A DNA stretch of 62,379 nucleotides, the filler included, from Babesia bigemina (taxonomy: Eukaryota): assembly GCF_000981445.1 (NCBI RefSeq). It is 11 parts of 11 records of this genome, joined end to end, with 100 filler letters (N's around TTAATTAATTAA, not from the genome) between each part and the next. Parts side by side here need not be neighbours in the genome. Positions count along the whole stretch, not along the records: positions 1 to 12,797 come from NW_012237047.1; 10 more parts are not named here. One strand, 5' to 3'. Numbering within the stretch: position 1 is the first letter of the stretch; each line of letters opens with the position of its first letter. Under the pieces are notes generated by a model. The model worked only from the letters and a program-made list of their open reading frames with translations, was not told where the DNA came from and made no database searches. This document shows, one piece after another, positions 1-59,698 of the stretch. The translations under genes and the position numbers were made by a program.

Positions 1-1092
1 GATTTTTTTCATGCACCAGCGTGTGATGGACACTCACAATTTTGTCACGCAACTTTTCGTTAAAATCATTAATGGCGTCTTTGTTGCTATTGTGACTATT
101 TTTGACATCTAAGTCATTAGTGAAGTTTCAGCTTTCCGCTGACAATCTGCCAGGCTCTTCTTAACGGACTCCTCGTTCAGTCCAATTTGCTTGGCGTCAT
201 CTGCAAGAGCATTATCTTTTTGTATTTCACTTACCGTTTTGTGAAGCAGCTGCATTTCCTTACTGAAAGTCTGTATTTTATTCTTAATGCTTTCATTCGA
301 CGACTTCACTGCCTGGTTGTACCGGTTGACGTTGACAGTCACCATGGGAAACGCCTTGCAAAAACCATCGTGACCTGAGTTCAAATTTGATTTTAAAGTG
401 CTACTAACTAATGTATTTAAGTATTCCTTACCTGTTTCGTAAGGCTGTTTCTCGCTGACATCCTCAAGCACACCACTCAAAAATCCCATCACTGCGTCAC
501 ACAGCCTATCCAAGTCAGAGTACACAATCCCCTGGCCATCGTAGCCTTTGGAGGCAGAGTTGAAGCCGAGGAAAGTCTGAAGGCCGTCACATAAATTATC
601 TAAGAGATTTTTAGGCTCATTTGAAGGCTTACTAACATTAACATAAAATCCACAAAGCTTCTCCACTTCCTTCAAAGCCTGCAACTTGGACTGCAATTTG
701 GCTGACTCAGCAGAGGGAGAGGGGGAAGAAAGAAGATTATTAGGAAGGTTATTTGGCTTATTAAGGCTATTAATATGCTGTTCAGTTTCAGTAATTTCTT
801 GGTTAACTCGCTCACTAAGCTTCTCAATTTCACCGGTGTCACCAGCCTGGCCAGCAGAGTTGACAGACACAGAAAGGTTAGTAACATAAGAAAAGTAAAC
901 ATTTTTAAGGTTTTCATTACTGTCAATTTTAGCGATAATAGCATTCTTAACGGCTTTCTTAACACTTTCACTCTCACCAACAAATCCGCCAAGCTGTCCA
1001 GCCAGGTGACCAAGGCTAATGAGCTTGGAGTCAATGTCCTCCAAGGCTCTTCTAGTAGCATCGTCAGTGAGAGAATGGTCGGCATCAACAAG
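1..1092 (-). CDS. ves1: VESA1-like variant surface antigen, 5' part (runs off window start)
   Basis: Motifs LGHLAGQLGGFVG and LCDGLQTFLGF..KGYDGQGIVYSDLDRLCDAVMGFLSGVL are shared with the other ves ORFs here. The frame is open 1092 to 109, then continues in another frame (DVKNSHNSNKDAINDF...) to base 1. No in-frame ATG before DAVMGF. Confidence 0.85.
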
Positions 1093-1276
1093 TTATTATG
1101 ATGCTTAATAGAGGTCATAGCGATATTATGGCGAGGTAATTCAAGAGATTTGGACATAGGGTGAACATGGTCAGGGCAGTGGCAAGAGGTGGAAGAGGGG
1201 AAGGGAAGGGTGACAAGGCACAAGTTATTGCTATGGTTTAGTAAGGTCATAGCGGTATTATGGCGAGGTAATTCGA
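1093..1276 (-). other. Conserved ves 5' leader element, two tandem copies (ATGs at 1250 and 1118)
   Basis: GAATTACCTCGCCATAAT..CGCTATGACC..AATAACTTGT occurs twice. The same element is at ~10700-10760, 35520-35665, 46134-46285 and 53865-54050. Confidence 0.8.
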
Positions 1277-1820
1277 GGGATGTAGAGTGGATAAAGGGGC
1301 GATGCAGAGTGGGTTAAGGGGCGATGTGGAGTGGATAAAGGGGCGATGTGGAGTGGATAAAGGGGCGATGTGGAGTGGGTTAGGGAGCGATTAGAGGAGG
1401 TTAAGGGGCGATGTAGGGTGGATAAAGGAGCGATGTAGAGTGGGTTAGGGAGCGATGTGGAGTGGGTTAGGGAGCGATGTGGAGTGGGTTAGGGAGCGAT
1501 GTAGAGTGGGTAAAGGAGCGATGTAGAGTGGGTAAAGGAGCGATGTAGAGTGGGTAAAGGGGCGATGTAGAGTGGGTTAAGGGGCGACGTAGAGTGGGTA
1601 AAGGGGCGATGTAGAGTGGATTAGGGAGCGATGTAGAGTGGATAAGGGAGCGATGTAGAGTGGGTTAAGGGGCGATGTAGAGAGGATAAAGGGGCGATGT
1701 AGAGTGGGTTAAGGGGCGATGTAGAGTGGGTTAAGGGGCGATGTGGAGTGGGTAAAGGGGCGATGTAGAGTGGGTAAGGGGCGATGTAGAGTGGGTTAAG
1801 GGGCGATGTAGAGTGGGTAA
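1277..1820 (+). repeat. 22-bp G-rich tandem array (GGGGCGATGTAGAGTGGATAAA / GGGAGCGATGTAGAGTGGGTTA)
   Basis: Directly visible; about 25 units. Confidence 0.97.
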
Positions 1821-1850
1821 TAATCACCACTTAGGTCAGGTGCTTGCTCA

Positions 1851-1932
1851 CCATTTCACCGCTGCCGTGACCATGTCACCGCTGCCGTAACCATGTCATC
1901 GCTGCCGTTACCATGTCATCGCTGCCGTGACC
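1851..1932 (+). repeat. 20-bp tandem repeat (CCATGTCATCGCTGCCGTGA)
   Basis: About 4 units; same repeat at 12731, 13491 and, inverted, at 45540. Confidence 0.9.
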
Positions 1933-1941
1933 ACTAACTTG

Positions 1942-2200
1942 CTCAGGTGCTTGGTCAACACGTTGGTCGTGGCATTGGTCAGCACATTGGTCAACACCTT
2001 GGTCACCACGTTGGTCAGCACCTTGGTCAACACTTTGGTCATGGCATTGGTCAGCACTTTGGTCATGGCATTGGTCAGCAGTTAGGTCACCACGTTGGGC
2101 AGCACTTTGGTCATGGCATTGGTCACCATTTTGGTAGGGTGCTAGGTTAGGTGGTTGATCAGCACGTTGGTCATGACATTGGCCAGGTGCTTGGTCACCT
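1942..2200 (+). repeat. 12-bp degenerate tandem repeat (GGTCAGCACTTT / GGTCATGGCATT / GGTCACCACGTT)
   Basis: Gives the GQHF/GHGI low-complexity ORF; inverted copy at 45212-45539. Confidence 0.88.
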
Positions 2201-2288: not shown

Positions 2289-2423
2289 TTAGCCGCGCAG
2301 TAGATACCGCACCCTATGGAACGGCCGGATGCAGAAGTAGATCATGACGCAGATGACGATGATGACGAGGGCGACGGCGGCGATGATGTAAGGGGCGGGT
2401 GTTACGGTCACCTCACTGCTCAT
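2289..2423 (-). CDS. 44-aa single-TM micro-ORF, duplicate of the TM/tail of the adjacent Cys-rich gene
   Basis: Translated by hand: MSSEVTVTPAPYIIAAVALVIIVICVMIYFCIRPFHRVRYLLRG*. Paralogous to the C-terminus of 2493..2930. Confidence 0.5.
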   Translation of the reverse strand: MSSEVTVTPAPYIIAAVALVIIVICVMIYFCIRPFHRVRYLLRG

Positions 2424-2492
2424 GTGATTGTTCATAAACACAATGATTACTGTCTAGACATTAGATGTCAGTTGGCAGTTAGGTTATTGTGA

Positions 2493-2930
2493 CTAGCTGC
2501 GCAGTAGATACCGCACCCTGTGGAACGGCCGGATGCGGAAGTAGCTCATGACGCAGATGGCGATGATGATGAGGGCGACGGGGACGATGATGATGGGTAT
2601 GACGACGGGGGAGGATGTGGAAGATGGTGGACCGGAGGTGTGCTGAAGGGTGGAGGAAGAGGTGACATGGGAGGATGTGCGGGATGCCTGTAGACTGCCG
2701 CCACGCTGAACAAGGGGTGCCGGAGGGCGTCTGCTCAGCCCGCAATAACATGAACACGCGCCAGGTTTACACTCTGTACATCCATCGGGCTCGCACTTTC
2801 CTTCTCCCCTCATGCGCTGACTGTAGATATTGCGACATATAGAAAAACATGATACACATTTATTACAAGACACGTAGCAGCAATAACAATTACTTCGAGT
2901 ACATTTATTGTTGCACTTACACAGCGCCAT
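2493..2930 (-). CDS. Small Cys-rich single-pass membrane protein (145 aa), ves-associated family member A
   Basis: Cys-dense N-terminal ~63 aa, Ser/Thr/Pro stalk, hydrophobic VVIPIIIVPVALIIIAICVMSYF and a basic tail. Homologous starts at 40058 and 47513 share the GGAAG-ATG context. Confidence 0.78.
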   Translation of the reverse strand: MALCKCNNKCTRSNCYCCYVSCNKCVSCFSICRNIYSQRMRGEGKCEPDGCTECKPGACSCYCGLSRRPPAPLVQRGGSLQASRTSSHVTSSSTLQHTSGPPSSTSSPVVIPIIIVPVALIIIAICVMSYFRIRPFHRVRYLLRS

Positions 2931-2938
2931 CTTCCCCT

Positions 2939-3478
2939 CCCAGTCCCCTCAACCTGCAAACATGTCAATCACCTAGCAACGCACTCACCAACTGCAACAC
3001 GTACCACTGCCGCTACCACTCCCCTCAACCTGCAAGCATATCAATCACCTAGCAACGCACTCACCAACACAACACTACCACTGCCGCTCCCAGTCCCCTC
3101 AACCTGCAAACATATCAATCACCTAGCAACGCACTCACCAACACAACACGTACCACTGCCGCTCCCAGTCCCCTCAACCTGCAAACATATCAATCACCTA
3201 GCAAGCACTCACCAACTGCAACACTACCACTGCCGCTACCAGTCCCCTCAACCTGCAAACATATCAATCACTCAAGCAGCACTCACCAACTGCAACACTA
3301 CCACTGCCGCTCCCAGTCCCCTCAACCTGCAACCATGTCAATCACTAACCAACGCACTCACCAACTGCAACACGTACCACTGCCGCTCCCAGTCCCCTCA
3401 GCCTGCAGACATATCAATCACCTAGCAACGCACTCACCAACTGCAACACGTACCACTGCCGCTCCCAGTCCCCTCATC
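2939..3478 (-). repeat. ~75-bp tandem array (~7 units) directly upstream of the Cys-rich gene
   Basis: Unit starts at 2941, 3017, 3091, 3166, 3240, 3314, 3390 and 3466. Confidence 0.95.
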
Positions 3479-3991
3479 AACACGCACCCTCACCCCTGTA
3501 CCCCCCCAGCCCAGGCCACCGACACCCACGCTGCCCGGGATACCACAGCTGCCCTGACGCGACGCATGTGATCAGCACCAACTGTCACTCTAAATTATTT
3601 ACTATTCGCAACGCGGTAAAAATTGCAGCGAGCCCCGTGCGCTCAACTCCCACAGTGCAGCAGCACCGTGCTACGAGCCGCGGTATCGGCGCCATGCTGG
3701 CGGAGCGTGTCGGCTACGTGCCTAAATGTGACATTAACGATCGTTACATTGCCGCCTATAAATGCTACTTAACCAGGCCAACTCGGATTGCGCCACCCTG
3801 CCAGTGACTCGCAACACACGACTTAGGTCACCCGCCGCGGTCCTCACGGCCGCCTACGTTAGCAACCAATCACCCAGCCTCACGTGACACTCACTCAATG
3901 GGCAACGCGGACGCCTCTCACAGTCAACGCACAACTCAACTTACCAGGCAATCAACGTGCTACAACACCCACCAAATTACGGTTCATCCGC
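3479..3991. promoter_or_regulatory. Conserved ~500-bp non-repetitive block (candidate promoter/regulatory element)
   Basis: Near-identical copies at 14731-15236 and 40836-41335, always between the 75-bp and 24-bp arrays. Function is inferred from position only. Confidence 0.45.
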
Positions 3992-4920
3992 CACCTTAGC
4001 ACTTAGCTTGGTTGCTAGGTTACCACTTTGCCTGGTTGCTTGCTTATCACTTAGCTTGGTTGCTAGCTTATCACTTAGCTTGGTTGCTTGCTTATCACTT
4101 TGCCTGGGTGCCAGCTTAGCACATTGCCTGGTTGCTACCTTAGCACTTTGCCTAGGTGCTAGGTCAACACGTTGCCTGACTGCTTGCTTAGCACATTGCT
4201 TGTGTGCTAGCTTAGCACTTTGCCTGCGTGCTAGCTTAGCACTTTGCCTGCGTGCTAGCTTAGCACTTTGCCTAGTTGCTAGGTCAGCACTTAGCCTGAG
4301 TGCTAGCTTTGCACTTTGCCCGGGTGCTAGCTTACCACTTTGCCTGGTTGCCAGCTTTGCACTTTGCCTGGCTGCTAGGTTAAGACCTTGCCTGCGTGCT
4401 CGCTTAGCACTTTGCCTGGTTGCCAGCTTAGCACTTTGCCTGGGTGCTAGGTGAGCACTTTGCCTGGGTGCTAGGTTAGCACTTAGCTTGTGTGCTACCT
4501 TACCACTTAGCCTGGGTGCTGAGTTAGCACGTCGCCTGATTGCTTGCTTACCACTTTGCCTGTGTGCCAGCTTACCACGTTGCCTGGTTGCTAGGTTAGC
4601 ACTTAGCCTGGGTGCTAGGTTACCACGTTGCCTGTGTGCCAGCTTAGCACTTTGCCTGGCTGCTAAGTCAGCACTTTGCCTGTGTGCCAGCTTATCACTT
4701 TGCCTGGTTGCTAGGTTATCACTTAGCCTGGTTGCTAGGTTATCACTTAGCCTGGTTGCTACCTTACCACGTTGCCTGGGTGCTAGCTTAACACTTAGCC
4801 TGGTTGCTAGCTTAGCACTTTGCCTGGTTGCTTAATCAACACTTTGCCTGGGTGCTAGGTCAACACTTTGCCTGGTTGCTAGCTTACCACTTTGCCTGGT
4901 TGCTAGGTCAACACGTTGCT
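3992..4920 (+). repeat. 24-bp tandem array (CTTAGCACTTTGCCTGGGTGCTAG), ~39 units
   Basis: Directly visible; ~145 bp downstream of the ves stop codon. Confidence 0.95.
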
Positions 4921-5065: not shown

Positions 5066-8000
5066 TCACGGTTGTAGATACGATATCTTGGCAAGCCTTC
5101 CGACTTGCGCCGCCGCCAACAATGACTGCGCCGTTATCTTGTGCGACGACGGTATCCTCAGGTGTGAGCGTATGTGGAGCACATCCAGTCTGCCAACCAT
5201 TACGCAGATGAGGTAGAAGAGGGAGAGTGACCAGAGTGCGAGAACCAAGTAGGTGAACGGTTGTCTGATGGTCCAAATGAAGTTGTCACATTCTTCAAAT
5301 AATTTGGTGAAGTGTTGCGATGTTAGTACGTTCTGTAATTGCGCGTAGAGGTTACGGCAGTATCTTCTTTGATCATCAGACAACAATTTTTCGGCGTCGC
5401 CAAATGTGAAGCCGTAGTTGTATAAAGTGCTCAGCACACCACGGCATCCCACCAGCGATCGGCACCGACAGCTGTATATATCGCCGTGTTTGCCCGGTCT
5501 ACAAGAAATGCCGTCGACACATCTGCTGCATCCCCAATCTTGACAAGAGATACTGCTATGCGAATCGAACAATGATTTCAGATAGCTATACAAAGACCAT
5601 GGTAAATACACGGCCCATGATAGGTAGAGGTTGCAATGCTTCTTTGCCAGATAGTGATACGAGTCGCAAAATAGAGTCTGAAGGTAAGGCCCGCAGTTAA
5701 CGTTGTCTTCGTTAGCAAGCATACATGACTCGTCCATTGAGAGGCTTGACATATCAGCCGATTTGGGGTTATGCTTACTTTTATCATGACTACTCTGGTT
5801 GCTACCATACGCGGCATCAAGCGCACTTGTAAGTTTGTTTGAGTCTTTATACAGGTCGATGGACACCGCGTTGATTGATGTGTTAAAAGCTGTCGTAACG
5901 TCCTGCGCAGTTGCATTTTTCGTATTATGCAATACATGAGTTAACGCCAACGCAAACTGGAAGTGCTCAGGCAGCGTGCTCGGCGGGCTGGGTACAAGGC
6001 ACAAAAGGGACGACACTAGGCCGCTACCAAACAGCAGTTTCAAAATCTCATATATATCTCTACCAGTTTTGGTAGATCCCGAGAACGCCCTGAAACCGAG
6101 GGGAGTGACGCATGGCATTCCGAGTTTAGCGACAGATGGACACGTTGAGCAAACGGACCGGCAGCCGATGGAAGTCAGCTTGTGAGGCAAGTGACCAGTT
6201 AGACAGTCACCCAGATACGACATTAATGGAGACGTTGGTTGACAATTTGGTCGGCACGTTACTTTGTCGTTTGGTTGGCATTTTGGTTCATCCGTTGAGT
6301 GATTTTTGCATGGCCATTTGTTCGTCTTGATATCTCTGCCGTATAGGCATTGCGCCCATCCACCGTGGTTTGTGCCTAGACTGCATTGGTAATACAAGTA
6401 TCTCAGTGGCGGCAACATACGACGCAGAATATCGAGAATGGTTTGCAGACATTCCTCACCGGAAGTGGGATATTTGAGGTTGAAGTAGTTTGTGTGGAAG
6501 TCGACCGCGTACACTGTCTCGGCGTTGCCGTGGCCCATGACGGTGGTGAGCAGATCATACGATTTCGTACACAGATGTTGCAACGCTGTGTTCACGCTGT
6601 TGTACGTAATGTTGCTCGGATGTGCCGTTATGGATTCCACCCGCGTGTCTGTTAACGTCAGCTCAAGGCCGTCATCGTCCACAACTCTCTGCTTAGATGG
6701 ATTCTCAAACGGCGCACTGAGGCCGTTCTGTAACAGCTCCTCGTAAACGGGGTGATGTGGGAGGCCGGTGAACCATACAAGCATTTCATGAACATTACAC
6801 GGCAGACGTGATTTGGGCCGGAGTGCTTGGTGGCAGACGTCGTAGTACTGCTTAAGGTAACTAGAAAGCGTATTAAGTGGTCCTTTCTCTCTTGCATCAT
6901 CGTGGCTGCTGTACACTTTCCCACTGCGACCGATAAGTCGGCCTAGGATATGCTCGCCGGTCATATCACTTCTGTCTTGCAGCTCGCCATTTTGCTCCCC
7001 GTTATCCGACACTTTGTAACCTTGCTCGGCTAACAGATCGCCAATGTCAGTATCTCTGTTGATTCGTTTCTTTGGCAAACTCTTGCAGTTAGATTTCAAC
7101 GTATGCAGCGAAACGTCCAAGGTGCGGAGCACCGTGAGGAACACCTTAGACAACCTGGTGCCTTCGTCAGTCAGATCATATTTCATGTTAACGTCACTAG
7201 TGCTGGAGACGTGTTGAAGGTTTTTTACTAGCTCACCGTAGAAGGTCTCACTATCATACACGCTCACGTACGCCTTTTCCAGCTCACCGTGCATCCTCTG
7301 CACGCCCTTTCTAAGACACTCGAGCAGGGGGTTGCTAGCGTCGGCGTAGGATGCGGGGCGGATGGTTGCGAGGAGGGAGGAAAGGGAGGAGAGGTTGGAG
7401 AGGAAGGGGCGGTTGAAACGGGATAATCCTGTAAATAATGCACCAAACGATTGGAGAAGTTCTGTGATTTTAACAGGTTCAGGCATGATTTGAGTGTTAG
7501 TGTCAAGTGTGGCAAACAAAGCGCTAAAGAAGATGTTAACGTCGGATGAAAAGTCAAGCAGAACATCAGTGCGCTGTGATGCTGCATTGAGATGCAAGAC
7601 TGCTTTATCATACAACTCCTTCATGAATCCCTTGTAGCATTTGTTTGCATCGTCTGCGATTTGTGCAGGCAGATGTTCGAGTTCCTTGTTGACTTTGTCG
7701 GCGAATTCCACAAGTTGGGATGCAATAAATTTGGCGTATCTCAATTTCAGGTGGTTGGTTATGCTGGACATGGCTCTGTCAAATTGTTCAGTGATTTTCT
7801 CGGAGAGTTGCTCGATTATAATGTTACCGTATCTACCGGCATCGTTAACAATTTCTTGAGCTTCGTCAACACGAGGGCGTATGTGTTTGGTTTGCAACTC
7901 ATACATCAGTGAGTGAAATTCCTCTAGACCACCTGGCAATTCGGTATTTCCTTTAGCAAGCATTCTTCTCAACTCTAATAACTTCGCCTTAGCACTATTG

Positions 8001-10723
8001 TGATCGGCGTCAGCGGCGTTTCTTATGGTGTCACAGAAGTTTGTGATGTGAGTCGTAATTAGCTGTGCTGTAGATTTTATCGTAGAAATATTAATTTGTT
8101 TTACGTTTACCGGAACAATGAATGCGTCTAACGCCTTTTCATGAACTTGTCTAATAGCCTTGCCAAGCGTACCGTTACTTTCAACATATATATTATAATC
8201 CGTCATTTTTGTCTTCAACTTCTGCCTATCGGCTTTCAGGTAATCCATCATGATTACTTCGATGTCATTATCAACTTCCTCGGTTGTTAAAATTTTGTCA
8301 AGCTGCTTGATCTTATCCTTTACGGTTAACAACGCCGTGCGTAGCTTTCCTCCGTATTTCGCATCATCCGTAAGTTCAGTCCATATTTCATTAGCTTTGC
8401 TTATAGCGTCGTCTACATTTTTTCCTAAGTTGTAGGCAACTATACCGTTGCTATGGTTTTCGGTGGTGAATGCCTTGATCTCATCTGCCGATTTTCTCAC
8501 TACGAGACTAAGTTGTGCTAATGCAGTTCGAATAGCAGATTGCAGATAGTCTTTAGACTGAACTGCGGAGGCTCGTGATGTCAAAAATTTTTTTTCAACT
8601 TCTGTAGCTATAACATTTGCATTATCCGGACTAACGCCTTTCTCAATTGCAGCAGCTACTTCATCATGGAACCTATTAATTTCTGATAGCATTGAAGCAA
8701 CGTTTCCACTGACGGCTGGTTTTTGTATGTTACCTTCTTTAACAAGTTTCACTATCTTCGGTATTATATCAGCGATAACTTCCTTCCGCTTCTGTTCCAA
8801 TTCGTTGCCACGCTGCGCACTACTAAGGTTATTACTCTGAATGTACCAGTCTATATGCATATTTACTGTATCGTTCTTTTCCAAAATCTTATTCAACCAG
8901 CTCTCCACCGTTATTGCAAACGCATCCGTTGTAAGTTTTTGAGCATACTCCTTCAATCGTTCTTTTATCCCTTCAAGGCCGTCATGCTTTGGATGCCCTT
9001 TTTCTTTCCCTGCTCCAGTCCCATTAATTTTTTTGATAAGTCCATTAACCACAATCTTCAGCATACCCAAATTGTGTTGGATACTATTATCGCTACCGCC
9101 AGAAGTCTGCTCTAGTGTGTTCCTCTTAATTTCATCAAACTCCACGCGAGCCCACTCTATATACTCCTTCAACTTTTCTTTGATTTCTCCTTCCAATCTC
9201 TGCAGACCTTTTACGATAACTCCATCTAATCCTGTAACCGCAGTTTTAACATTTTTTATCAGATGCGGCAGGGCTTTTTCAGCTATCTCATAAGCCTCAT
9301 ACAAAGCCACTCCTTTTCTTTCCAAAGTCAGAACGGCCTCTTTGAGTTTCTCTACATATTGAGTTTTAGATTGGCCCGTAGCTTCACACAATACTTGTTC
9401 AACTTTATTTAACGCAACTATGACAACCTTGTCTGCTTTCGTGATCCACTCGTTAAGTTCATTGACATAATGTGTCAACAACCCATTTATATCTGAGAGT
9501 TTCTGTTTAATTTCAGATATCTTCTCGCATATTACGCTTACGAACGCTTTAATGTTCTCAACGGCCATCTCATTTATTGTATTTCTAGCAGCATTCAGTT
9601 GAGTTTCTATCAACTCACTGGCATGCTTTATATGAAGTTGTTCTATTTTCCATACTTCACCAAGCCGCCAATACTGATATGTAATTGCATCACTAGCATT
9701 ATTAATTTTAGTTTGCAAGTCCGTTTGTAAATCGTCTATATTCTTCTTCTCAGCTGCCATGCCATCATCGTATGACTGCGCTTGTTGGAGGCATGTCTGC
9801 ATATGCGCATCTACTTGACTCACGGCCATGTTAATTTCACCTGCAACAGCATTACTAATACTAATTCCACTTACCGATGCTTTGATCTCTTTCATTTGTT
9901 GTGTGAAAGTGTCAATGACATTTCTTACAGCTTGATTACTCTCCCTCACCTTCTCATTATACCCCCGCACCCCTGCGACCACCCTTCCAATCGCAGCATT
10001 AAAACCGTTTTTACCGGCGTGTTTATTGGTGTTAAGAATGTCAATTGTTTCATTTAAAGTCTCTTTATGCTGCCCTAAATGCTCTTTGATGTTGCTGAGA
10101 ACACCACTCAAAAATCCCATCACCCCGTCACACAGCCTATCCAGGTCAGAGTACACAATACCACTGCCGTCGTAGCCTTTGGAGGCAGCATTGAAGCCGA
10201 GGAATTTCTCGAGGCCGTCACATAAATGCGTTAAAATATTATTATTTTCACCATTTTTAGTAAGTGATTCAGCAAATTCAGCAAGCTTCTTCACAGTCTC
10301 CAAAGCAGACAACTTGGACTGACAGTCATGTAAACGCTTATTTTCTTCTTCAGTTAGATATGAATTTTGCTTACTTTGAAGCTCTTTTATAGTTTCAGGA
10401 AGATTTTTGACTTCATTTTTTATCGCTTCTTTAATCTGCTCGAAACTTTTTTTCTTGGGAGTAGTAGACTCAGTAGGCTTAGCAGGCAAAGGAGCCGAGC
10501 CGGCAGGCGAGGCGACGGAAGAAGAAGCTTTAGCGAGAGGGTATTGCTTGTTTAGAGATTCATAAGCTTTACCTATAGCCTCCTCAATCAACTTTTTCAA
10601 AGCTTGAGACAACTTGGTAAGACCATCATCACCACCATTCCCATACCTAACCTGGATCAACCAGTCGATGGACTCAGTCAGAAGGGAAGTGAAAGGTGAC
10701 AAGTCACAAGTTATTAGGATGGT
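5066..10723 (-). CDS. ves1: VESA1-like variant surface antigen, near full-length open frame (~1,885 codons)
   Basis: N-terminal ESIDWLIQV, GIVYSDLDRLCDG, long helical variable region, Cys-rich C-terminal region, TM (FTYLVLALWSLSLFYLICVMV) and tail RLDVLHIRSHLRIPSSHKI..SYLQP. The ORF-track start is TTG, not ATG. Confidence 0.92.
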   Translation of the reverse strand, partial: TILITCDLSPFTSLLTESIDWLIQVRYGNGGDDGLTKLSQALKKLIEEAIGKAYESLNKQYPLAKASSSVASPAGSAPLPAKPTESTTPKKKSFEQIKEAIKNEVKNLPETIKELQSKQNSYLTEEENKRLHDCQSKLSALETVKKLAEFAESLTKNGENNNILTHLCDGLEKFLGFNAASKGYDGSGIVYSDLDRLCDGVMGFLSGVLSNIKEHLGQHKETLNETIDILNTNKHAGKNGFNAAIGRVVAGVRGYNEKVRESNQAVRNVIDTFTQQMKEIKASVSGISISNAVAGEINMAVSQVDAHMQTCLQQAQSYDDGMAAEKKNIDDLQTDLQTKINNASDAITYQYWRLGEVWKIEQLHIKHASELIETQLNAARNTINEMAVENIKAFVSVICEKISEIKQKLSDINGLLTHYVNELNEWITKADKVVIVALNKVEQVLCEATGQSKTQYVEKLKEAVLTLERKGVALYEAYEIAEKALPHLIKNVKTAVTGLDGVIVKGLQRLEGEIKEKLKEYIEWARVEFDEIKRNTLEQTSGGSDNSIQHNLGMLKIVVNGLIKKINGTGAGKEKGHPKHDGLEGIKERLKEYAQKLTTDAFAITVESWLNKILEKNDTVNMHIDWYIQSNNLSSAQRGNELEQKRKEVIADIIPKIVKLVKEGNIQKPAVSGNVASMLSEINRFHDEVAAAIEKGVSPDNANVIATEVEKKFLTSRASAVQSKDYLQSAIRTALAQLSLVVRKSADEIKAFTTENHSNGIVAYNLGKNVDDAISKANEIWTELTDDAKYGGKLRTALLTVKDKIKQLDKILTTEEVDNDIEVIMMDYLKADRQKLKTKMTDYNIYVESNGTLGKAIRQVHEKALDAFIVPVNVKQINISTIKSTAQLITTHITNFCDTIRNAADADHNSAKAKLLELRRMLAKGNTELPGGLEEFHSLMYELQTKHIRPRVDEAQEIVNDAGRYGNIIIEQLSEKITEQFDRAMSSITNHLKLRYAKFIASQLVEFADKVNKELEHLPAQIADDANKCYKGFMKELYDKAVLHLNAASQRTDVLLDFSSDVNIFFSALFATLDTNTQIMPEPVKITELLQSFGALFTGLSRFNRPFLSNLSSLSSLLATIRPASYADASNPLLECLRKGVQRMHGELEKAYVSVYDSETFYGELVKNLQHVSSTSDVNMKYDLTDEGTRLSKVFLTVLRTLDVSLHTLKSNCKSLPKKRINRDTDIGDLLAEQGYKVSDNGEQNGELQDRSDMTGEHILGRLIGRSGKVYSSHDDAREKGPLNTLSSYLKQYYDVCHQALRPKSRLPCNVHEMLVWFTGLPHHPVYEELLQNGLSAPFENPSKQRVVDDDGLELTLTDTRVESITAHPSNITYNSVNTALQHLCTKSYDLLTTVMGHGNAETVYAVDFHTNYFNLKYPTSGEECLQTILDILRRMLPPLRYLYYQCSLGTNHGGWAQCLYGRDIKTNKWPCKNHSTDEPKCQPNDKVTCRPNCQPTSPLMSYLGDCLTGHLPHKLTSIGCRSVCSTCPSVAKLGMPCVTPLGFRAFSGSTKTGRDIYEILKLLFGSGLVSSLLCLVPSPPSTLPEHFQFALALTHVLHNTKNATAQDVTTAFNTSINAVSIDLYKDSNKLTSALDAAYGSNQSSHDKSKHNPKSADMSSLSMDESCMLANEDNVNCGPYLQTLFCDSYHYLAKKHCNLYLSWAVYLPWSLYSYLKSLFDSHSSISCQDWGCSRCVDGISCRPGKHGDIYSCRCRSLVGCRGVLSTLYNYGFTFGDAEKLLSDDQRRYCRNLYAQLQNVLTSQHFTKLFEECDNFIWTIRQPFTYLVLALWSLSLFYLICVMVGRLDVLHIRSHLRIPSSHKITAQSLLAAAQVGRLAKISYLQP

Positions 10724-10762: not shown

Positions 10763-12712
10763 GGGATGTAGAGTGGGTAGAGGAGCGATGTGGAGTGGGT
10801 AAAGGGGCGATGTAGAGTGGGTAAAGGGGCGATGTAGAGTGGATAAAGGGGCGATGTGGAGTGGGTTAGGGAGCGATGTGGAGTGGGTAAAGGGGCGATG
10901 TAGAGTGGATAAAGGGGCGATGTAGGGTGGGTTAGGGAGCGATGTAGAGTGGTTAAAGGGGCGATGAAGAGTGGATAAAGGGGCGATGTAGAGGAGGTTA
11001 GGGAGCGATGTGGAGTGGATGAGGGAGCGATGTGGAGTGGATTAGGGAGCGATGTAGAGTGGGTAAGGGAGCGATGTAGAGTGGATAAAGGGGCGATGTA
11101 GAGTGGATAAAGGGGCGATGTGGAGTGGATAAAGGGGCGATTAGAGGACGTTGAGGAGCGATGTGGAGTGGATAAAGGGGCGATGTAGAGTGGATAAAGG
11201 AGCGATGTAGAGTGGATAAAGGGGCGATGTGGAGTGGGTTAGGGAGCGATGTAGAGTGGGTAAAGGGGCGATGTAGAGTGGATAAAGGAGCGATGTAGAG
11301 TGGATAAAGGAGCGATGTAGAGTGGGTTAAGGAGCGATGTAGAGTGGGTTAAGGAGCGATGTGGAGTGGATAAAGGAGCGATGTAGAGTGGATAAAGGGG
11401 CGATGTAGAGTGGATAAAGGGGCGATGTAGAGTGGATAAAGGGGCGATGTAGAGTGGGTTAGGGAGCGATGTAGAGTGGATAAAGGGGCGATGTAGAGTG
11501 GGTTAAGGGGCGATGTGGAGTGGATAAGGGGCGATGTAGAGTGCGTTAGGGAGCGATGTAGAGTGGGTTAGGGAGCGATGTGGAGTGGGTTAGGGGCGAT
11601 GTAGAGCGGGTTAAGGGGCGATGTAGAGTGGGTTAGGGAGCGATGTAGAGTGGGTAAAGGGGCGATGTAGAGTGGGTAAAGGGGCGATGTAGAGTGGGTA
11701 AAGGGCGATGTAAGGTGGGTAAAGGGGCGATGTAGAGTGGGTTAGGGAGCGATGTGGAGTGGATAAAGGGGCGATGTGGAGTGGATTAGGGAGCGATGTG
11801 GAGTGGGTTAAGGGGCGATGTAGAGTGAATAAAGGGGCGATGTAGAGTGGATTAAGGGGCGATGTAGAGTTGATAAAGGAGCGATGTAGAGTGGGTTAAG
11901 GGAGCGATGTAGAGTGGATAAAGGGGCGATGTAGAGTGGGTAAAGGAGCGATGTAGAGTGGATAAGGAGCGATGTAGAGTGTGTAAAGGAGCGATGTGGA
12001 GTGGGTTAAGGGGCGATGTAGAGTGGATTAAGGGGCGATGAAGGGTGGGTTAAGGGGCGATGAAGGGTGGATAAAGGGGCGACGTAGACTGGGTAAAGGG
12101 GCGATGAAGGGTGGGTAAAGGGGCGATGTAGAGTGGATAAGGGGCGATGTAGAGTGGGTTAGGGAGCGATGTAGAGTGGGTTAGGGAGCGATGTAAACTG
12201 GGTTAAGGGGCGATGTAGAGTGGATAAAGGGGCGATGTAGAGTGGACTAAGGGGCGAGGTAGAGTGGATAAAGGGGCGATGTAGAGTGGATAAAGGGGCG
12301 ATGCAGAGTGAGATAAGGGGCGATTGTAGAGTGGATAAAGTGGGCGATGTGGAGTAGATTAGGGAGCGATGTTGAGTGGATAAAGAGGCGATGTTGAGTG
12401 GATAAAGGGGCGATGTAGAGTGGGTTAAGGAGCGATGTAGAGTGGGTTAGGGAGCGATGTAGAGTGGGTTAGGGAGCGATGTAGAGTGGATGAAGGAGCG
12501 ATGTAGAGTGGTTAAAGGGGCGATGTAGAGTGGGTTAAGGGGCGATGTAGAGTGGATTAGGGAGCGATGCAGACTGAGTTAAGGGGCGATGTAGAGTGGA
12601 TAGAGGAGCGATGTAGAGTGGGTAAAGGGGCGATGTGGAGTGGATAAGGGAGCGATGTAGGCTGGGTTAGGGAGCGATGTAGAGTGGGCTAGGGGGCGAT
12701 GTGGAGTGGATA
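10763..12712 (+). repeat. 22-bp G-rich tandem array, ~1.95 kb
   Basis: Directly visible. Confidence 0.97.
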
Positions 12713-12730
12713 ATACTCCCCACTCTGGTC

Positions 12731-12797
12731 TCCATGTCATCGCTGCCGTGTCCATGTCATCGCTGCCGTGTCCATGTCATCGCTGCTGTGTCCATGA
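12731..12797 (+). repeat. 20-bp tandem repeat (cut by gap)
   Basis: TCCATGTCATCGCTGCCGTG x3. Confidence 0.88.
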
Positions 12798-12897
12798 NNN
12801 NNNNNNNNNNNNNNNNNNNNNNNNNNNNNNNNNNNNNNNNNTTAATTAATTAANNNNNNNNNNNNNNNNNNNNNNNNNNNNNNNNNNNNNNNNNNNN
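12798..12897. other. Assembly gap with TTAATTAATTAA linker
   Basis: N44-TTAATTAATTAA-N44 artificial contig spacer. Confidence 0.98.
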
Positions 12898-13490: not shown

Positions 13491-13610
13491 CCATGTCATC
13501 GCTGCCGTAACCAGTAACCATGTCATCGCTGCCGTGACCATGTCATCGCTGCCGTGATCATGTCATCGCTGCCGTAACCTTAACTTGGTAACCATGTCAT
13601 CGCTGCCGCG
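13491..13610 (+). repeat. 20-bp tandem repeat
   Basis: CCATGTCATCGCTGCCGT units. Confidence 0.88.
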
Positions 13611-13611
13611 T

Positions 13612-14730
13612 CCAGTCCCCTCAACCTACTAACTTATCAATCACTCAAGCAGCACTCACCAACTGCAACACGTAGGCACTGCCCGCTCCAGTCCCCTCAA
13701 GCTGCAAGCATATCAGTCACCTAGCAACGCACTCACCAACTGCAACACGTACCACTGCCGCGCCCAGTCCCCTCAGCCTGCAAACATATCAATCACTCAA
13801 GCAGCACTCACCAACTGCAACACGTACAACTGCCACTCCCAGTCCCCTCAACCTGCGAACATATCAATCACCTAGCAACGCGCTCACCAACTGCAACACT
13901 ACCACTGCCGCTACCAGTCCCCTCAACCTGCAGACATATCAATCACATAAGCAACGCACTCACCAACTGCAACACGTACACTGCCGCTCCCAGTCCCCTC
14001 AACCTGCGAACATGTCAATCACCTATGCAAGCACTCACCAACTGCAACACTGCCACTGCCGCTCCCAGTCCCTTCTGCCTGCAAACATATCAATCACTCA
14101 AGCAACGCACTCACCAACTACGACACGTACCACTGCCGCTCCCACTCCCCTCAACCTGCAAACATATCAATCACCTAGCAACGCACTCACCAACTGCAAC
14201 ACGTACCACTGCCGCTCCCAGTCCCGTCAAGCTGCAAGCATATCATTCACCTAGCAACGCACTCACCAACTGCAACACGTACCACTGCCGCGCCCAGTCC
14301 CCTCAGCCTGCAAACATATCAATCACCTAGCAACGCACTCACCAACTGCAACACGTACCACTGCCGCGCCCAGTCCTCTCAACCTGCGAACATATCAATC
14401 ACATAACCAACTCACTCACCAACTGCAACACTACCACTGCCCCTCCTAGTCCCTCAACCTGCATAAATATCAATCACCTAGCAAGCACTCACCACCTGCA
14501 ACACTACCACTGCCGCTACCAGTCCCCTCAGCCTGCACGCATATCAATCACCTAGCAACGCACTCACCAACTGCAACACTACCACTGCCGCTCCCAGTCT
14601 CCTCAGCCTGCGAACATATCAATCACTCAAGCAGCACTCACCAACTGCAACACTACCACTGCCGCTCCCAGTCTCCTCAGCCTGCGAACATATCAATCAC
14701 TCAAGCAGCACTCACCAACTGCAACACGTA
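13612..14730 (-). repeat. ~75-bp tandem array (~15 units)
   Basis: Same unit as 2939-3478. Confidence 0.95.
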
Positions 14731-15236
14731 CCCTCACCGCTGTATCCCCCCAGCCCAGGCCACCGACACCCACGCTGCCCGGGATACCACAGCTGCCCTG
14801 ACGCGACGCATGTGATCAGCACCAACTGTCACTCTAAATTATTCATTATTCGCAACGCTATAGAAATTGCAGCGAGCCCCGTGCGCTCAACTCCCACAGT
14901 GCAGCAGCACCCTGCTACGAGCCGCGGTATCGGCGCCATACTGGCGGAGCGTGTCGGCTACGTGCCTAAATGTGATATTAACAATCGCTACATTGCCGCC
15001 TATAAACGCTACTTACCCAGGCCAACGCGGATTACGCCACCCTGCCAGTGACTCGCAACACACGACTTAGGTCACCCGCCGCGGCCCTCACGGCCGCCTA
15101 CGTTAGCGACCAATCACCCAGCCTCACGTGACACTCACTCAATGGGCGACGCGGACGCCTCTCACAGTCAACGCGTAACTCAACGCAACAATAAATCAAC
15201 GTGCTACGACACCCACCAAAATACGGTTCATCCGCC
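14731..15236. promoter_or_regulatory. Conserved ~500-bp block, copy 2
   Basis: Near-identical to 3479-3991. Confidence 0.45.
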
Positions 15237-15348
15237 AGCTCAGCACTTTGCCTGGGTGCTAGGTTAGCACTTTGCCTGGGTGCTAGGTTAGCACTTTGCC
15301 TGGCTGCTAGGTTACCACGTTGCCTGTGTGCTAGCTTAGCACTTTGCT
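15237..15348 (+). repeat. 24-bp tandem array, ~5 units
   Basis: Same unit as 3992-4920. Confidence 0.9.
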
Positions 15349-15505
15349 TTGCTGTTCACTCATCACCTAATCTAGGTGCTATCTAGTTCACACGTTACCC
15401 CTTGAGTAATTCGAGACATTAGACTACGTTTGTCAGTTAGGTGAGTAGGTGATATGCTAGGTGAGTAGTTACGTGAGTTACAGTGAATTACAAATGTGAC
15501 GATGA

Positions 15506-16075
15506 TTACGGTTGTAGATACGATATCTTGGCAAGCCTTCCGACTTGCGCTGCCGCCAACAATGATTGCGCCGTTATCTTGTGCGACGACGGTATCCTCA
15601 GGTGTGACCTGATGTGGAGCACATCCAGTCTGCCAACCATTACGCAGATGAGGTAAAAGAGAGATAGTGACCAGAGTGCGACATTGAGCCAGATGAAGGG
15701 TGCGCGGATGGTGAACATGAAATTATCAATGGTTTTGAAAAACTTCACAAGATGTGAGTCTTCTTCAAATGCCTCCTTAAATACATCACAGAAATCTCTG
15801 CACGTGCGTTTCGTATGCGATTGTCCATCCCTGTTCAGCCTCTCTGGATCGCCGAGAACAAAGCCGTATTTTGCCAATGTCGGCAGCGTAGCATTGCACT
15901 GTACAATGGATTTGCATTTGGGATCGTGATATCGTGGCGGTTGATACGTGGTGGATGTAGTTCTACAATCTTTGACGCACGCTTTCACGTGGCAATTTGA
16001 TCCCCTGGCACCGCATTTGGAATTGCACTCATCGTAGAGTTTCTTAAGTAAGTCGTAGAACGTCGCCGTCAGGTA
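15506..16075 (-). CDS. ves1: VESA1-like antigen, 3' fragment (cut by gap)
   Basis: YLTATFYDLLKKLY...TM...RLDVLHIRSHLRIPSSHKITAQSLLAAAQVGRLAKISYLQP*. Confidence 0.9.
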   Translation of the reverse strand, partial: YLTATFYDLLKKLYDECNSKCGARGSNCHVKACVKDCRTTSTTYQPPRYHDPKCKSIVQCNATLPTLAKYGFVLGDPERLNRDGQSHTKRTCRDFCDVFKEAFEEDSHLVKFFKTIDNFMFTIRAPFIWLNVALWSLSLFYLICVMVGRLDVLHIRSHLRIPSSHKITAQSLLAAAQVGRLAKISYLQP

Positions 16076-39879: not shown

Positions 39880-40058
39880 AGATGACCAAAGTATGCCCGG
39901 CAGTCAGTCTTATTTTTGCGCAGGAGGAGATATCCCCAACATCCATTGCAATTGTCACTCTTACATTTTTCACAGCACCACGAGCAGCAGACACAACTAA
40001 ACCGTGGACAACTAATATCACATGTACACGGAGAACCTGACGTGGACACCCAAACCAT
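39880..40058 (-). CDS. Small Cys-rich protein, family member B (5' part, cut by gap)
   Basis: MVWVSTSGSPCTCDISCPRFSCVCCSWCCEKCKSDNCNGCW..; same position and ATG context as member A. Confidence 0.72.
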
Positions 40059-40067
40059 CTTCCGCTA

Positions 40068-40835
40068 CCAATCCCCTCAACCTGCAAACATATCAATCAC
40101 CTAAGCAGCACTCACCAACTGCAACACTACCACTGCCGCTCCCAGTCCCCTCAACCTGCAGACATATCAATCACTCAAGCAGCACTCACCAACTGCAACA
40201 CGTACCACTGCCGCTCCCAGTCCCCTCAACCTGCAAGCATATCAATCACCTAAGCAACGCACTCACCAACTGCAACACGTACCACTGCCGCTCCCAGTCC
40301 CCTCAACCTGCAAGCATATCAATCACCTAGCAACGCACTCACCTACTACGACACGCACCACTGCCGCTCCCAGTCCCCTCAACCTGCTAACATATCAATC
40401 ACTCAAGCAACGCACTCACCAACTGCAACACGTGACACTGCCGCTCCACTCCCCTCAACCTGCAAGCATATCAATCACCTAAGCAACGCACTCACCAACT
40501 GCAACACGTACCACTGCCGCTCCCAGTCCCCTCAACCTGCAAGCATATCAATCACCTAGCAACGCACTCACCTACTACGACACGCACCACTGCCGCTCCC
40601 AGTCCCCTCAACCTGCTAACATATCAATCACTTAGTCAACGCACTCACCAACTGCAACACTACCACTGCCGCTCCCAGTCCCCTCAACCTGCAAACATAT
40701 CACTCACTCAAGCAGCACTCACCAACTGCAACACTACCACTGCCGCTCCCACTCCCCTCAACCTGCAAGCATATCAGTCACTCAAGCAGCACTCACCAAC
40801 TGCAACACTACCACTGCCGCTCCCACTCCCCTCAT
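40068..40835 (-). repeat. ~75-bp tandem array (~10 units)
   Basis: Same unit as 2939-3478. Confidence 0.95.
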
Positions 40836-41335
40836 CAACACTCACCCTCACCGCTGTATCCCCCCAGCCCAGGCCACCGACACCCACGCTGCCCGGGATA
40901 CCACAGCTGCGCCTGACGCGACGCATGTGATCAGCACCAACTGTCACTCTAAATTATTCACTATTCGCAACGCCATACATATTGCAGCGACCCGTGCGCT
41001 CAACTCCCACAGTGCAGCAGCACCGTGCTACGAGCCGCGGTATCGGCGCCATGCTGGCGGAGCGTGTCGGCTACGTGCCTAAATGTGATATTAACGATCG
41101 TTACATTGCCGCCTATAAATGCTACTTAACCAGGCCAACGCGGATTACGCCACCCCGCCAGTGACTCGCAACACACGACTTAGGTCACCCGCCGCGGCCC
41201 TCACGACCGCTACGTTAGCGACCAATCACCCAGCCTCACGTGACACCGACTCAATGGGCAACGTGGACGCCTCTCACAGTCAACGCACCGGGCAATCAAC
41301 GTGCTATAACACCCACCAAATTACGGTTCATCCGC
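40836..41335. promoter_or_regulatory. Conserved ~500-bp block, copy 3
   Basis: Near-identical to 3479-3991 with small indels. Confidence 0.45.
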
Positions 41336-42527
41336 CAGCTTACCACTTTGCCTGGTTGCTAGCTAAGCACTTTGCCTGGTTGCTAGCTTAGCACTTTGCC
41401 TGGTTGCTAGCTTAGCACTTTGCCTGGTTGCTAGCTTAGCACTTTGCCTGAGTGCTAGCTTACCACGTTGTCTGGTTGTAAGCTTACCACTTTGCCTGGT
41501 TGCCAGCTTAGCACTTTGCCTGGTTGCCAGCTTAGCACTTCGCCTGGTTGCTAGGTCAACACTTTGCCTGGATGCTAGGTTAGCATTTAGCCTGGTTGCT
41601 AGGTTACCACTTTGCCTGGGTGCTAGGTTAGCACTTTGCCCGAGTGCCAGCTTACCACTATGCCTGGGTGCTAGCTTACCACTTTGCCTGGTTGCCAGCT
41701 TAGCACTTTGCCTGGTTGCCAGCTTAGCACTTCGCCTGGTTGCTAGGTCAACACTTTGCCTGGGTGCTAGGTTACCACTTTGCCTGGTTGCTAGGTTACC
41801 ACTTTGCCTGGGTGCCAGCTTACCACTTTGCCTGGGTGCTAGCTTACCACTTTGCCTGGTTGCTAGGTCAACACTTTGCCTGGATGCTAGGTTAGCACTT
41901 AGCCTGGTTGCTAGGTTACCACTTTGCCTGGGTGCTAGGTTAGCACTTTGCCCGAGTGCCAGCTTACCACTATGCCTGGGTGCTAGGTTAGCACTTTGCC
42001 TGGGTGCTAGGTCAACACTTTGCCTGGGTGCTAGCTTACCACGTTGCCTGGTTGCTAGGTCAACACTTTGCCTGGGTGCCAGCTTACCACGTTGCCTGGG
42101 TGCTAGCTTAGCACTTTGCCTGGTTGCTAGCTTAGCACTTTGCCTGGGTGCTAGCTCAGCACTTTGCCTGGGTGCTAGCTTAGCACTTTGCCTGGATGCT
42201 AGCTTAGCACTTTGCCTGAGTGCTAGGTTACCACTTTGCCTGGGTGCTAGCTTAGCACTTTGCCTGGTTGCTAGCTTAGCACTTTGCCTGGGTGCTAGGT
42301 TACCACTTTGCCTGGGTGCTAGCTCAACACTTTGCCTGGTTGCTAGCTTATCACTTTGCCTGGGTGCCAGCTTATCACTTTGCCTGGGTGCTAGGTTAAC
42401 ACTTAGCTTGCGTGCTTGCTTAGCACTTTGCCTGGATGCTTGCTTAGCACTTTGCCTGGGTGCTAGGTTAGCACTTTGCCTGGGTGCTTGCTTAGCACTT
42501 TGCCTGGGTGCTAGGTCAACACTTTGC
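41336..42527 (+). repeat. 24-bp tandem array, ~50 units
   Basis: Directly visible. Confidence 0.95.
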
Positions 42528-42682: not shown

Positions 42683-43584
42683 TTAAGGCTGCAGGTACGA
42701 TATCTTGGCAAGCCTTCCGACTTGCGATGCGGCCAACAATGACTGCGCCGTTATCTTGTGCGACGACGGTACCCTCAGGTGTGATTTGATGTGGAGCACA
42801 TCCAGTCTGCCAACCATTACGCAGATGAGGTAGAAGAGGGATAGTGACCAAAGCGCGACGGTCATCCATATAAACGGCTGCCTGATGGTGAAGATGAATT
42901 CGTCGCATTTTTCGAACAGCTTTCTGAAGGAGTTGGAATTTAATACATTGTGAAGTTGTCGGTGGAAATTGTGGCAATACCTTCTACCTTCAGCGTCTAA
43001 CAATTTTTCAGGATTGCCGAACGTGAATCCGAAACTATATAACGTGCTTACGACACCGCGGCATTCAACGATGCCTTTGCACTGGCAGTTATAGGCTGCG
43101 CCATGCTTACCCCGTTTACAAGCCGTGCCGTGCGTACAGCGACGACATCCCCAATCCTGGCAGGATATATTGGTAAACGCCCTGAACAAAGATTCAAGAC
43201 ACTGCCAGAACGACCACGGTAAGTACACTGCCCATGACAGGTAGAGACCGGCGTGCTTCTCGGCAGCGTAGTGGTATGCATCACTGTACAACGTGGACAG
43301 GTACGGAGCGCAGTGAACGTCGTCAGTACTAGCGTATTTGCAGGACTCTGTTTTCGAGAGACTCGACAAGTCGGCCTCCGTAGGTCTCGAATGATTTCTA
43401 CCCTCATGACTTTGGCCGTTTTTGTAAGCGTCACTAAGCGCGCCTGTGAGTTGTGATGGCTCCGCATACAAGTCGATGGACTGCTTCCTTATTGCCTTCA
43501 CAAACGCAGCATTGACGGCATCTGAGTTGCCATCTCAGGTAGCATTAAACGCACCGACCGAAGGTAAATACAAACTGGAAGTGC
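42683..43584 (-). CDS. ves1: VESA1-like antigen, 3' fragment (cut by gap)
   Basis: CAPYLSTLY..YLSWAVYLPW..CQDWGC..TM..RLDVLHIKSHLRVPSSHKI..SYLQP*. Confidence 0.9.
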
Positions 43585-43684: not shown

Positions 43685-43802
43685 TTTTTAAAACGATCAG
43701 AGATTCGTCCCTTAGCAGTGCAGAGCAGTACCGCGTTTTTCTCCTTTTGTAGGCTCTGAGTCAGATGAAAACATTTCTCCACTTCCCCCCCCTTCCCCCC
43801 AA

Positions 43803-45205
43803 GATATCGCCGCCGTCATCGTTGCCATCATCGTCACCATCATCCTGCTCAACCTGTGCATCTTCCGCTTCCCGGTGGGCCGCAACATCCGCGATTTCCT
43901 CGTCCGCAAGATACCCTTCTGCATCGCGTTCTACAGCTGATCTCCGCAATTTGTTAGTGCAAACATCGTAATCCAAATTCCACTGATCACCCAACTGCCA
44001 ACTGACGTCAAATGTTCTAGACAGAGTAATGATTGAATTGATGAACAATCACATGAGCAGTGAAGTGACCATCCCCCCCTCCCTACTCCGCCATCGCCGC
44101 CGTCATCGTTGCCATCATCGTCGCCATCATCCTGCTCGACCTGTGCATCTTCCGCTTCCCGGTGGGCCGCAACATCCGCGATTTCCTCGTCCGCAAGATA
44201 CCCTTCTGCATCGCGTTCTACAGCTGATCTCCGCAATTTGGTTGGCGCAAATTTCTTAATCCTTATTCCACAGATCACATAACTGCCAACTGACATCTAA
44301 TGTTGTGGACCATAATGATCGCGTTGATGATCAATAACAGGAGCAGTGAAGTGACTGCTTCCTCCCTCTCTACTCCGCCATCGCCGCCGTCATCGTTGCC
44401 ATCATCGTCGCCATCATCCTGCTCGACCTGTGCATCTTCCGCTTCCCGGTGGGCCGCAACATCCGCGATTTCCTCGTCCGCAAGATACCCTTCTGCATCG
44501 CGTTCTACAGCTGATCTCCGCAATTTGGTTGGCGCAAATTTCTTAATCCTTATTCCACAGATCACATAACTGCCAACTGACATCTAATGTTGTGGACCAT
44601 AATGATCGCGTTGATGATCAATAACAGGAGCAGTGAAGTGACTGCTTCCTCCCTCCCTACTCCGCCATCGCCGCCGTCATCGTTGCCATCATCGTCGCCA
44701 TCATCCTGCTCGACCTGTGCATCTTCCGCTTCCCGGTGGGCCACAGAATCCGCGATTTCCTCGTCCGCAAGATACCCTTCTGCATCGCGTTCTACAGCTG
44801 ATCTCCGCAATTTGTTAGTGCAAACATCGTAATCCAAATTCCACTGATCACCCAACTGCCAACTGACGTCAAATGTTCTAGACAGAGTAATGATTGAATT
44901 GATGAACAATCACATGAGCAGTGAAGTGACCATCCCCCCCTCCCTACTCCGCCATCGCCGCCGTCATCGTTGCCATCATCGTCGCCATCATCCTGCTCGA
45001 CCTGTGCATCTTCCGCTTCCCGGTGGGCCACAGAATCCGCGATTTCCTCGTCCGCAAGATACCCTTCTGCATCGCGTTCTACAGCTGAGCTCAACAATCT
45101 GTAAGCGCATAACTTCTTCATCCAAATCCCACCGATCACCTAACTGGCAACTACATCTAATGTGCTAGACAGAGTAATGATTGCGTTGATGACCAGGCAC
45201 ATGAG
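43803..45205 (+). repeat. Five tandem 287-bp units, each encoding a TM helix plus cytoplasmic tail
   Basis: IAAVIVAIIVAIILLDLCIFRFPVG(RN/HR)IRDFLVRKIPFCIAFYS* with TGA ending at 43940, 44227, 44514, 44801 and 45088. Confidence 0.9.
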
Positions 45206-45211
45206 CAGTGA

Positions 45212-45539
45212 GGTGACCAAGCATCTGACCAATGTGCTGACCAATGCCACGACCACGTGTTGACTCAATGCTATGACCAGAGTGCTGACCTAGAACCTTA
45301 CCAAAGTGCTGACCAAAGTGCTGACCAATGCCATGACATAAGTGGTGACCTACCACCTGACCAAAGTGCTGACCAAGATGCTGCCCAAAGTGCTGACCAA
45401 CGTGGTGACCAATGCCATGACCAACGTGGTGACCAAAGTGATGAACGATGTGTTGACCAACGTGTTGACCAAGGTGCTGACCTATGTGCTGACCAATGCC
45501 ATGACCAACGTGGTGACCAAGCACCTGACCAAGTTGATG
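45212..45539 (+). repeat. 12-bp degenerate tandem repeat (inverted relative to 1942-2200)
   Basis: ACCAAAGTGCTG / ACCAATGCCATG / ACCAACGTGGTG units. Confidence 0.88.
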
Positions 45540-47400: not shown

Positions 47401-47513
47401 CCACACTCACCGCAATAGACACTCTTACATGTTGCGCAACACCACGGACAACAAACACATGATCGACCCATTCGACATCCCGTACCACATATACACGGAT
47501 CCCCGCTCCCCAT
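47401..47513 (-). CDS. Small Cys-rich protein, family member C (5' part, cut by gap; absent from ORF track)
   Basis: Translated by hand: MGSGDPCICGTGCRMGRSCVCCPWCCATCKSVYCGEC; GGAAG-ATG context. Confidence 0.72.
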
Positions 47514-56700: not shown

Positions 56701-56724
56701 CTGTACGTCGACCACTAATCCAAT

Positions 56725-57829: not shown

Positions 57830-58492
<663 letters not shown>

Positions 58493-58767: not shown

Positions 58768-58796
58768 TTCAAATATGTATCCGCTCATGAGACAAT
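58768..58796 (+). promoter_or_regulatory. bla P3 promoter (vector)
   Basis: -35 TTCAAA at 58768 and -10 GACAAT at 58791. Confidence 0.88.

Positions 58797-58825: not shown

Positions 58826-59698
<873 letters not shown>

Follow-up and report, generated by a model that had tools for sequence, protein, structure and literature searches.

The window analysed here, a 62,379-nucleotide stretch of the draft genome of Babesia bigemina, holds three open reading frames (ORFs) for small cysteine-rich proteins, all on the minus strand and all opening with GGAAG-ATG at the same position of a repeat cassette linked to ves genes. ORF A (2493..2930, 145 aa) has an intact frame of 145 codons and is the only complete member of its family in the window; ORF B (39880..40058) and ORF C (47401..47513) are cut off by assembly gaps, B at 59 codons and C at 37. 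A preliminary description of this DNA had placed the three starts at 2930, 40058 and 47513, 23–29 nt after the AG of the last repeat unit, and had quoted the cysteine strings of A, B and C. Both observations hold, the distances being 23, 23 and 29 nt, but of the three ORFs only A is whole, and the anchors of B and C are not seen. The window carries 10 scaffolding spacers and a stretch of cloning vector, and order across the gaps is insecure.

Read from its N-terminus, A consists of cysteine module 1 (residues 4–32, 2835..2921, 10 Cys against 11 in most members), module 2 (residues 46–63, 2742..2795, 6 Cys against 7 in most members), a Ser/Thr/Pro-rich stalk predicted to be disordered (2607..2741) and a transmembrane (TM) helix (residues 109–127) with a basic type-1 tail (2496..2606; C-terminal end RPFHRVRYLLRS), all on the minus strand. 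A hand count gives 16 Cys (10+6), one having been lost from each module relative to the family core. The cysteine scaffold reported earlier is thus present and longer than was quoted, module 1 having 11 Cys and being followed by a second module with 7. No hydrophobic stretch is found at the N-terminus of A, and the VESA1-like topology claimed for it (stalk, one TM helix, basic tail, no signal peptide) is the one we observe.

Cysteine codons concentrate in a single frame of each ORF: 16 against 2 and 1 in A, 12 against 2 and 1 in B, 11 against 0 and 2 in C. The Cys motif occurs three times in the window and is absent from all 20 shuffled windows and from all 5000 shuffles of each of the three ORFs; the motif was derived from A, B and C themselves, and these tests show clustering rather than discovery power. 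At the Cys codons shared by A, B and C, 9 of 27 pairwise comparisons (the pairs are not independent) differ synonymously, TGT against TGC. Together with the single-frame cysteines, these differences indicate that the cysteines of A, B and C are conserved at the protein level. An origin of the Cys richness in TG-rich DNA was rejected, as the cysteines lie in one frame and the motif is absent from shuffles.

The relatives of A amount to 45 gene models, each a B. bigemina 'hypothetical protein', of which 34 are chromosomal and 11 lie on unplaced contigs. Word-index searches gave 13 and later 28 proteins, and a profile run against 1.84 billion representatives returned 41 matches: 22 already known, 17 new B. 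bigemina proteins and two marginal unnamed ones (E 5e-4 and 9e-4), which were dropped as stalk-plus-TM look-alikes. In the databases searched no member was found outside B. bigemina; B. ovata gave no family match, though it is present in the related database used for the ves1 search, and no relative was found in JGI metagenomes. The tail is of type 1 in 24 models and of type 2 in 18, and both are predicted in 3. In 25 of the 45 the first part of the model comes from the 76-bp repeat described below, read in spliced form, and 22 of these 25 are without an intact module 1. Because the BOND gene models are ab initio (PMC4066756, methods), misannotation likely hid the family; for the same reason, and because its Cys codons vary synonymously in frame, we rejected a reading of module 1 as an intron, which a GT-A donor-like site at its opening might suggest. 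BOND also holds models of 59 and 68 aa that resemble spare copies of the TM-tail. We found no description of the family in the open-access literature (subscription journals lay outside the scope), and six family locus tags appear in no main text searched. In its account of the gene content, PMC4066756 does remark that, among the genes specific to B. bigemina that remain, a conserved C-terminal end and a TM segment are frequent. We regard the set as a real, apparently undescribed, species-restricted multicopy coding family.

Its conservation pattern was measured on 12 complete members, namely 11 from BOND and A; complete members span 137–201 aa. The 17 Cys columns are 96% identical, against 20% for the other columns of the domain, and identity over TM and tail is 96% in type 2 and 62% in type 1. 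The core counts 18 Cys (11+7) in nine of the 11 complete BOND members, and 19 and 17 in the other two. Cys makes up 26% of the domain and Lys 11%, with aromatic residues (Trp, Tyr, Phe) at about 9% and a conserved Trp. Hydropathy shows no hydrophobic stretch at the N-terminus of any of nine members whose starts are clean, and only 15–25 residues follow the helix. Tail types are scattered over the domain tree with five changes, on a tree that is weak. Two AlphaFold2 models reached a predicted local distance difference test (pLDDT) score of 57 and 63, their confident parts being TM and module 2 only, and fold searches with them matched the helix only. Pfam at its curated cut-off gave no match for A or 33 members (weak TM-only matches, e.g. 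RIFIN and endomucin, were rejected as compositional), the ESM Atlas no usable match, and PDB sequence searches nothing meaningful; no characterised family was named by any of them.

On one strand the order of the cassette is ves1 3' end, 24-bp array, 500-bp spacer, 76-bp array, ORF and spare TM-tail copies, continuing with 12-, 20- and 22-bp arrays and then the next ves gene. For A these elements are a ves1-type gene, probably ves1b, with a degenerate VESA motif (5066..10723, minus), the 24-bp array after its 3' end (3995..4906), the spacer (3480..3990, minus), the 76-bp array (2937..3476, minus), a spare TM-tail copy (2289..2435, minus) that has an ATG of its own, making a micro-ORF of 48 codons, and is 92% identical in DNA to the tail of A, the 12-, 20- and 22-bp arrays (1279..2135), and the 5' part of the next ves gene on the same strand as A (109..1250, minus). 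Cassette B comprises a 76-bp array of 10 units, spacer and 24-bp array (40054..42527, minus) behind the 3' end of a ves1-type gene (42683..43534, minus), and another ves1-type gene lies 5' of C (48366..53864, minus). In cassette D (13603..15510, minus) a ves1 3' end is followed by the 24-bp array, the spacer and 15 units, which meet the 20-bp array without an ORF between them; the junction is at a common GCGGCAG, as if the ORF had been lost by microhomology deletion. The spacer, a candidate promoter, is 93–96% identical in A, B and D and is thus found at three of four ves1 3' ends. The near-identity of upstream DNA noted earlier applies to A and B (96% over ~500 bp) but not to C, which has a different spacer and two units only. 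All three family starts in the window are downstream of a ves1 3' end. Flanks are 94–96% identical, against synonymous differences of 0.4–0.9 in module 1.

[quoted passage not shown] Type-2 tails lie in the same downstream DNA: at 43685..45219 (plus) a member that has lost its start to a gap retains its stalk and type-2 TM-tail, followed by four spare tail copies with a 287-bp period. The spare tails after the stop codon (2289–2435; 43866–45219) include one intact micro-ORF, and four that either are out of frame with their upstream ATG or lack it. Strand-skewed 22-bp arrays, mostly directly upstream of ves 5' ends, occur at 1279–1820, 10765–13474, 35668–37592, 45703–46131, 54055–55593 and 56716–57705. 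In BOND, 8 of the 11 unplaced models could be paired with a ves1-type protein by equal size of contig, although such contigs are ves-rich anyway. By locus number, 3 of the 34 chromosomal models adjoin one of 13 named chromosomal ves1 loci, two more adjoin 200-kDa hypothetical proteins, and model 0305330 is two locus numbers away from a dominant VESA1B.

The repeat unit of the leader array, given as 75 bp in the preliminary description, is in fact 74–77 bp. Anchored on an inner motif, each of the 34 units has GTGAG at one end, followed 34–36 nt on by CAG (33 units) or TAG (one unit). An ATG, mostly opening a four-codon frame, lies inside 33 of the 34 GT-AG elements, and the internal 39–41-nt pieces have none; cassette A would accordingly have seven putative introns of 34–35 nt (GTGAG...CAG), each with an ATG, between putative exons of 39–41 nt. 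These 34–36-nt elements look like introns, and introns this short are normal in Babesia. About half of the unit columns are invariant, so support for the intron ends is moderate. For B. microti an intron length of 20 bp has been reported.

Among known families the closest parallel is with VESA1, which in B. bovis lacks a signal peptide and has a variable Cys- and Lys-rich domain (CKRD) and one C-terminal TM helix (PMC6630957; PMC9477259, Table 1). Our family likewise has no signal peptide, a single C-terminal TM helix and a short tail (hydropathy of nine members; helix confident in both models), a variable Cys/Lys-rich region, many copies and the same loci, but VESA1 is ∼10 times larger, and its C-terminal domain and signature motif are missing from the family. 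Aligned by hhalign with 111 ves1 C-termini, the family scored a 9% probability over 17 TM columns and 2.4% in a second run; a score this high also came from one of 100 column shuffles, so that there is a weak hint of common TM origin only. The members do not reach the size of VESA1 (∼100 kDa or more), and a P(K/R)TIREILYWLS-type motif is present in the neighbouring ves1 genes and not in the family alignments. In composition the domain fits the CKRD; no VESA1 was among the 41 profile matches and there was no VESA1_N Pfam match, in a comparison that included no direct B. bovis alignment. B. bigemina VESA1 itself is described as having no CKRD (PMC4066756; PMC6630957). BbigVes2, the ves2 product, is also short, multicopy, from B. 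bigemina and at ves loci; VESA2, however, derives from the 5' end of ves1b, carries a predicted signal peptide, lacks a TM helix and is an abundant component of the proteome, whereas the family shows no ves1b 5'-end homology, no signal peptide, and a TM helix. The SmORF proteins of B. bovis are small, variable and interspersed with ves1, but Table 1 of PMC9477259 gives them a signal peptide and no TM, the opposite of what we find, and the contrast drawn in the preliminary description stands; SmORF is reported absent from B. bigemina (PMC4066756). No 6-Cys (s48/45) match was found by Pfam in 33 members at E 0.1, and there is no signal peptide.

Variant-specific surface proteins (VSPs) of Giardia display a variable Cys-rich ectodomain on a near-invariant TM and short tail, as the family would, but have a signal peptide and are larger; 33 members gave no VSP match in Pfam. 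Metallothioneins, with ∼25–30% Cys in CxC, CC and CxxC groups, are soluble and have no aromatic residues. The family approaches them in Cys density (26%), in these groups and in its about 18–20 Cys in two modules, and differs in its aromatics (∼9% of the domain), its stalk and TM and its large variable membership. No metallothionein match was returned by Pfam, PDB or fold searches, whose filters drop biased sequences and whose model was poor. By analogy of architecture and placement, the family resembles a miniature VESA1 or Giardia VSP, and would be a member of neither.

Our preferred reading, held tentatively and at somewhat less than even confidence, is that A and at least 45 annotated copies are small variant surface antigens, displayed like VESA1, with most copies silent at any time. 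The helix would be an uncleaved anchor, its basic tail cytoplasmic and the Cys domain outside, because net charge is 0 to –2 on the N-terminal side of the helix and +3 to +5 on its C-terminal side; under the positive-inside rule the basic flank of a TM helix tends to the cytoplasmic side. Export might use the signal-peptide-free route of VESA1, about nine disulfides could staple the small domain and leave its loops free to vary, and recombination among cassettes would homogenise flanks and tails and shuffle domains. Only one or few loci would be active, and the 35-nt leader introns would have to be spliced out, since their short upstream frames would otherwise hold translation down. A bolder form, which we rate as a long shot, is that the Cys/Lys-rich variable domain missing from B. 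bigemina VESA1 has moved to this miniature protein, which shares one repeat cassette with ves1b, moves along with it and acts as its variable companion on the infected red cell, switched on by splicing up to 15 tandem 35-nt leader introns with four-codon upstream frames. The earlier claim of a second variant-antigen family at ves loci is borne out for copy number (45 models) and ves1 linkage; for surface location, switching and antibodies we found no data.

A number of observations weigh against our preference. None of 23 family loci tested (out of 45, five complete members among them) is listed in the blood-stage/kinete RNA-seq table in supplement 1 of PMC9806345, for which the Mexico strain was mapped to BOND; 3,721 genes pass its filter of 1 count per million (CPM), and a non-significant control gene is present. 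Similarly, none of 12 loci tested is in the PR proteome table of the PMC4066756 supplement, which covers ∼8% of proteins. Transcripts and peptides had been proposed as a check in the preliminary description, and this check went against it, with the caveats that the strain is another one, the domains are too divergent to map, reads from near-identical tails were perhaps discarded, gene models may be wrong, 22 loci fall outside the test and some stages were not sampled. These published tables are the main evidence against abundant blood-stage expression. The single-cell and B. ovata supplements contain none of the locus tags searched but are lists of selected genes, and so are no evidence. In two low-share arthropod runs reads fell on repeat arrays only, unspliced, and not on ORF A or the ves1 3' end, the 22-bp arrays being by far the best-covered sequence; two other such runs gave 1 and 0 reads, and none of the four tests expression. 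Further, one of the four cassettes in the window (D) is empty, an intact module 1 is visible in only 11 of the 45 BOND models, and one ATG at the array head of A, B and C would stay once the putative introns are removed. Clades defined by tail type are not rejected by the approximately unbiased (AU) test (p 0.24). At non-Cys codons the proportions of nonsynonymous (pN) and synonymous (pS) differences in the pairs of A, B and C are 0.50/0.88, 0.76/0.76 and 0.45/0.41, near saturation; pN is about equal to or below pS with no clear excess, so the selection test suggested earlier neither shows nor excludes positive selection. Finally, B. bigemina does not cytoadhere (PMC6630957), hence no adhesive role is implied.

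Absence from blood and kinete RNA-seq combined with coding constraint would also suit surface or adhesion proteins of an unsampled stage (tick-gut sexual, zygote, egg or sporozoite) whose diversification would serve binding or tick immunity, without switching in the blood of cattle. By locus number, two members adjoin strongly kinete-induced genes, 0100170 next to 0100160 and 0312480 next to 0312490, in line with such a role. We nevertheless think it unlikely: a loop identity of 20% is harder to explain in a tick stage because ticks have no antibodies, the linked genes are ves1-type, and large coiled-coil genes of matching size, presumably ves1b, are blood-stage induced in PMC9806345. The lack of expression in the tables searched could equally fit passengers or an archive, that is, a once-functional gene copied with the ves1b cassette and now mostly untranscribed or serving as donor sequence only, and the empty cassette D, the spare tail copies (four of them out of frame with their upstream ATG or lacking it) and pN close to pS outside the cysteines all agree with this. 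Neutral decay, however, would erode Cys columns and the rest alike, and the former are 96% identical in open frames though the latter stand at 20%; donor copies, moreover, still imply an expressed site. We find this idea as doubtful as that of an unsampled stage.

It is less probable again that the proteins are tail-anchored with a cytosolic Cys domain, in the parasite or the red cell, holding a zinc or copper thiolate cluster or being palmitoylated, with loops that vary as only cysteines matter. The missing signal peptide, the 15–25 residues after the helix, the metallothionein-like density of 26% Cys in CxC, CC and CxxC groups (about 18–20 per domain) and the odd number of cysteines (11) in module 1 would all be accommodated. 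Yet metallothioneins lack the conserved Trp and ∼9% aromatics seen here, the basic tail favours a C-terminus inside under the positive-inside rule, and metal buffering needs no 45 divergent copies beside antigen genes in one species.

B. bigemina persists in cattle through antigenic variation, and its described repertoire consists of ves1a, ves1b and ves2. If the proteins are indeed variant surface antigens, at least 45 more genes at ves loci would alter the tally of variable antigens, and as a translation gate the repeated-intron leader would be out of the ordinary. The near-invariant anchor offers a target for detection and the small scaffold a target for structure determination. Should the family be silent, it still marks the repeat cassette that houses ves1 genes.

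Several other features of the window are of minor note. A pUC-type cloning vector at 58240–60151 (lacZ fragment, TEM beta-lactamase at 58826–59698, origin), which beyond its Pfam match we take to be vector, is contamination and not parasite DNA. A segment at 37693 restarts exactly 1043 bp on (38736), beside an M16 peptidase ORF (39058), through duplication or misassembly. A coding-like 33-bp repeat at 34146–34733 is open on both strands, and the minus-strand frame that was scanned gave no Pfam match. A Vps18/Pep3 homologue lies at 19033–21393.
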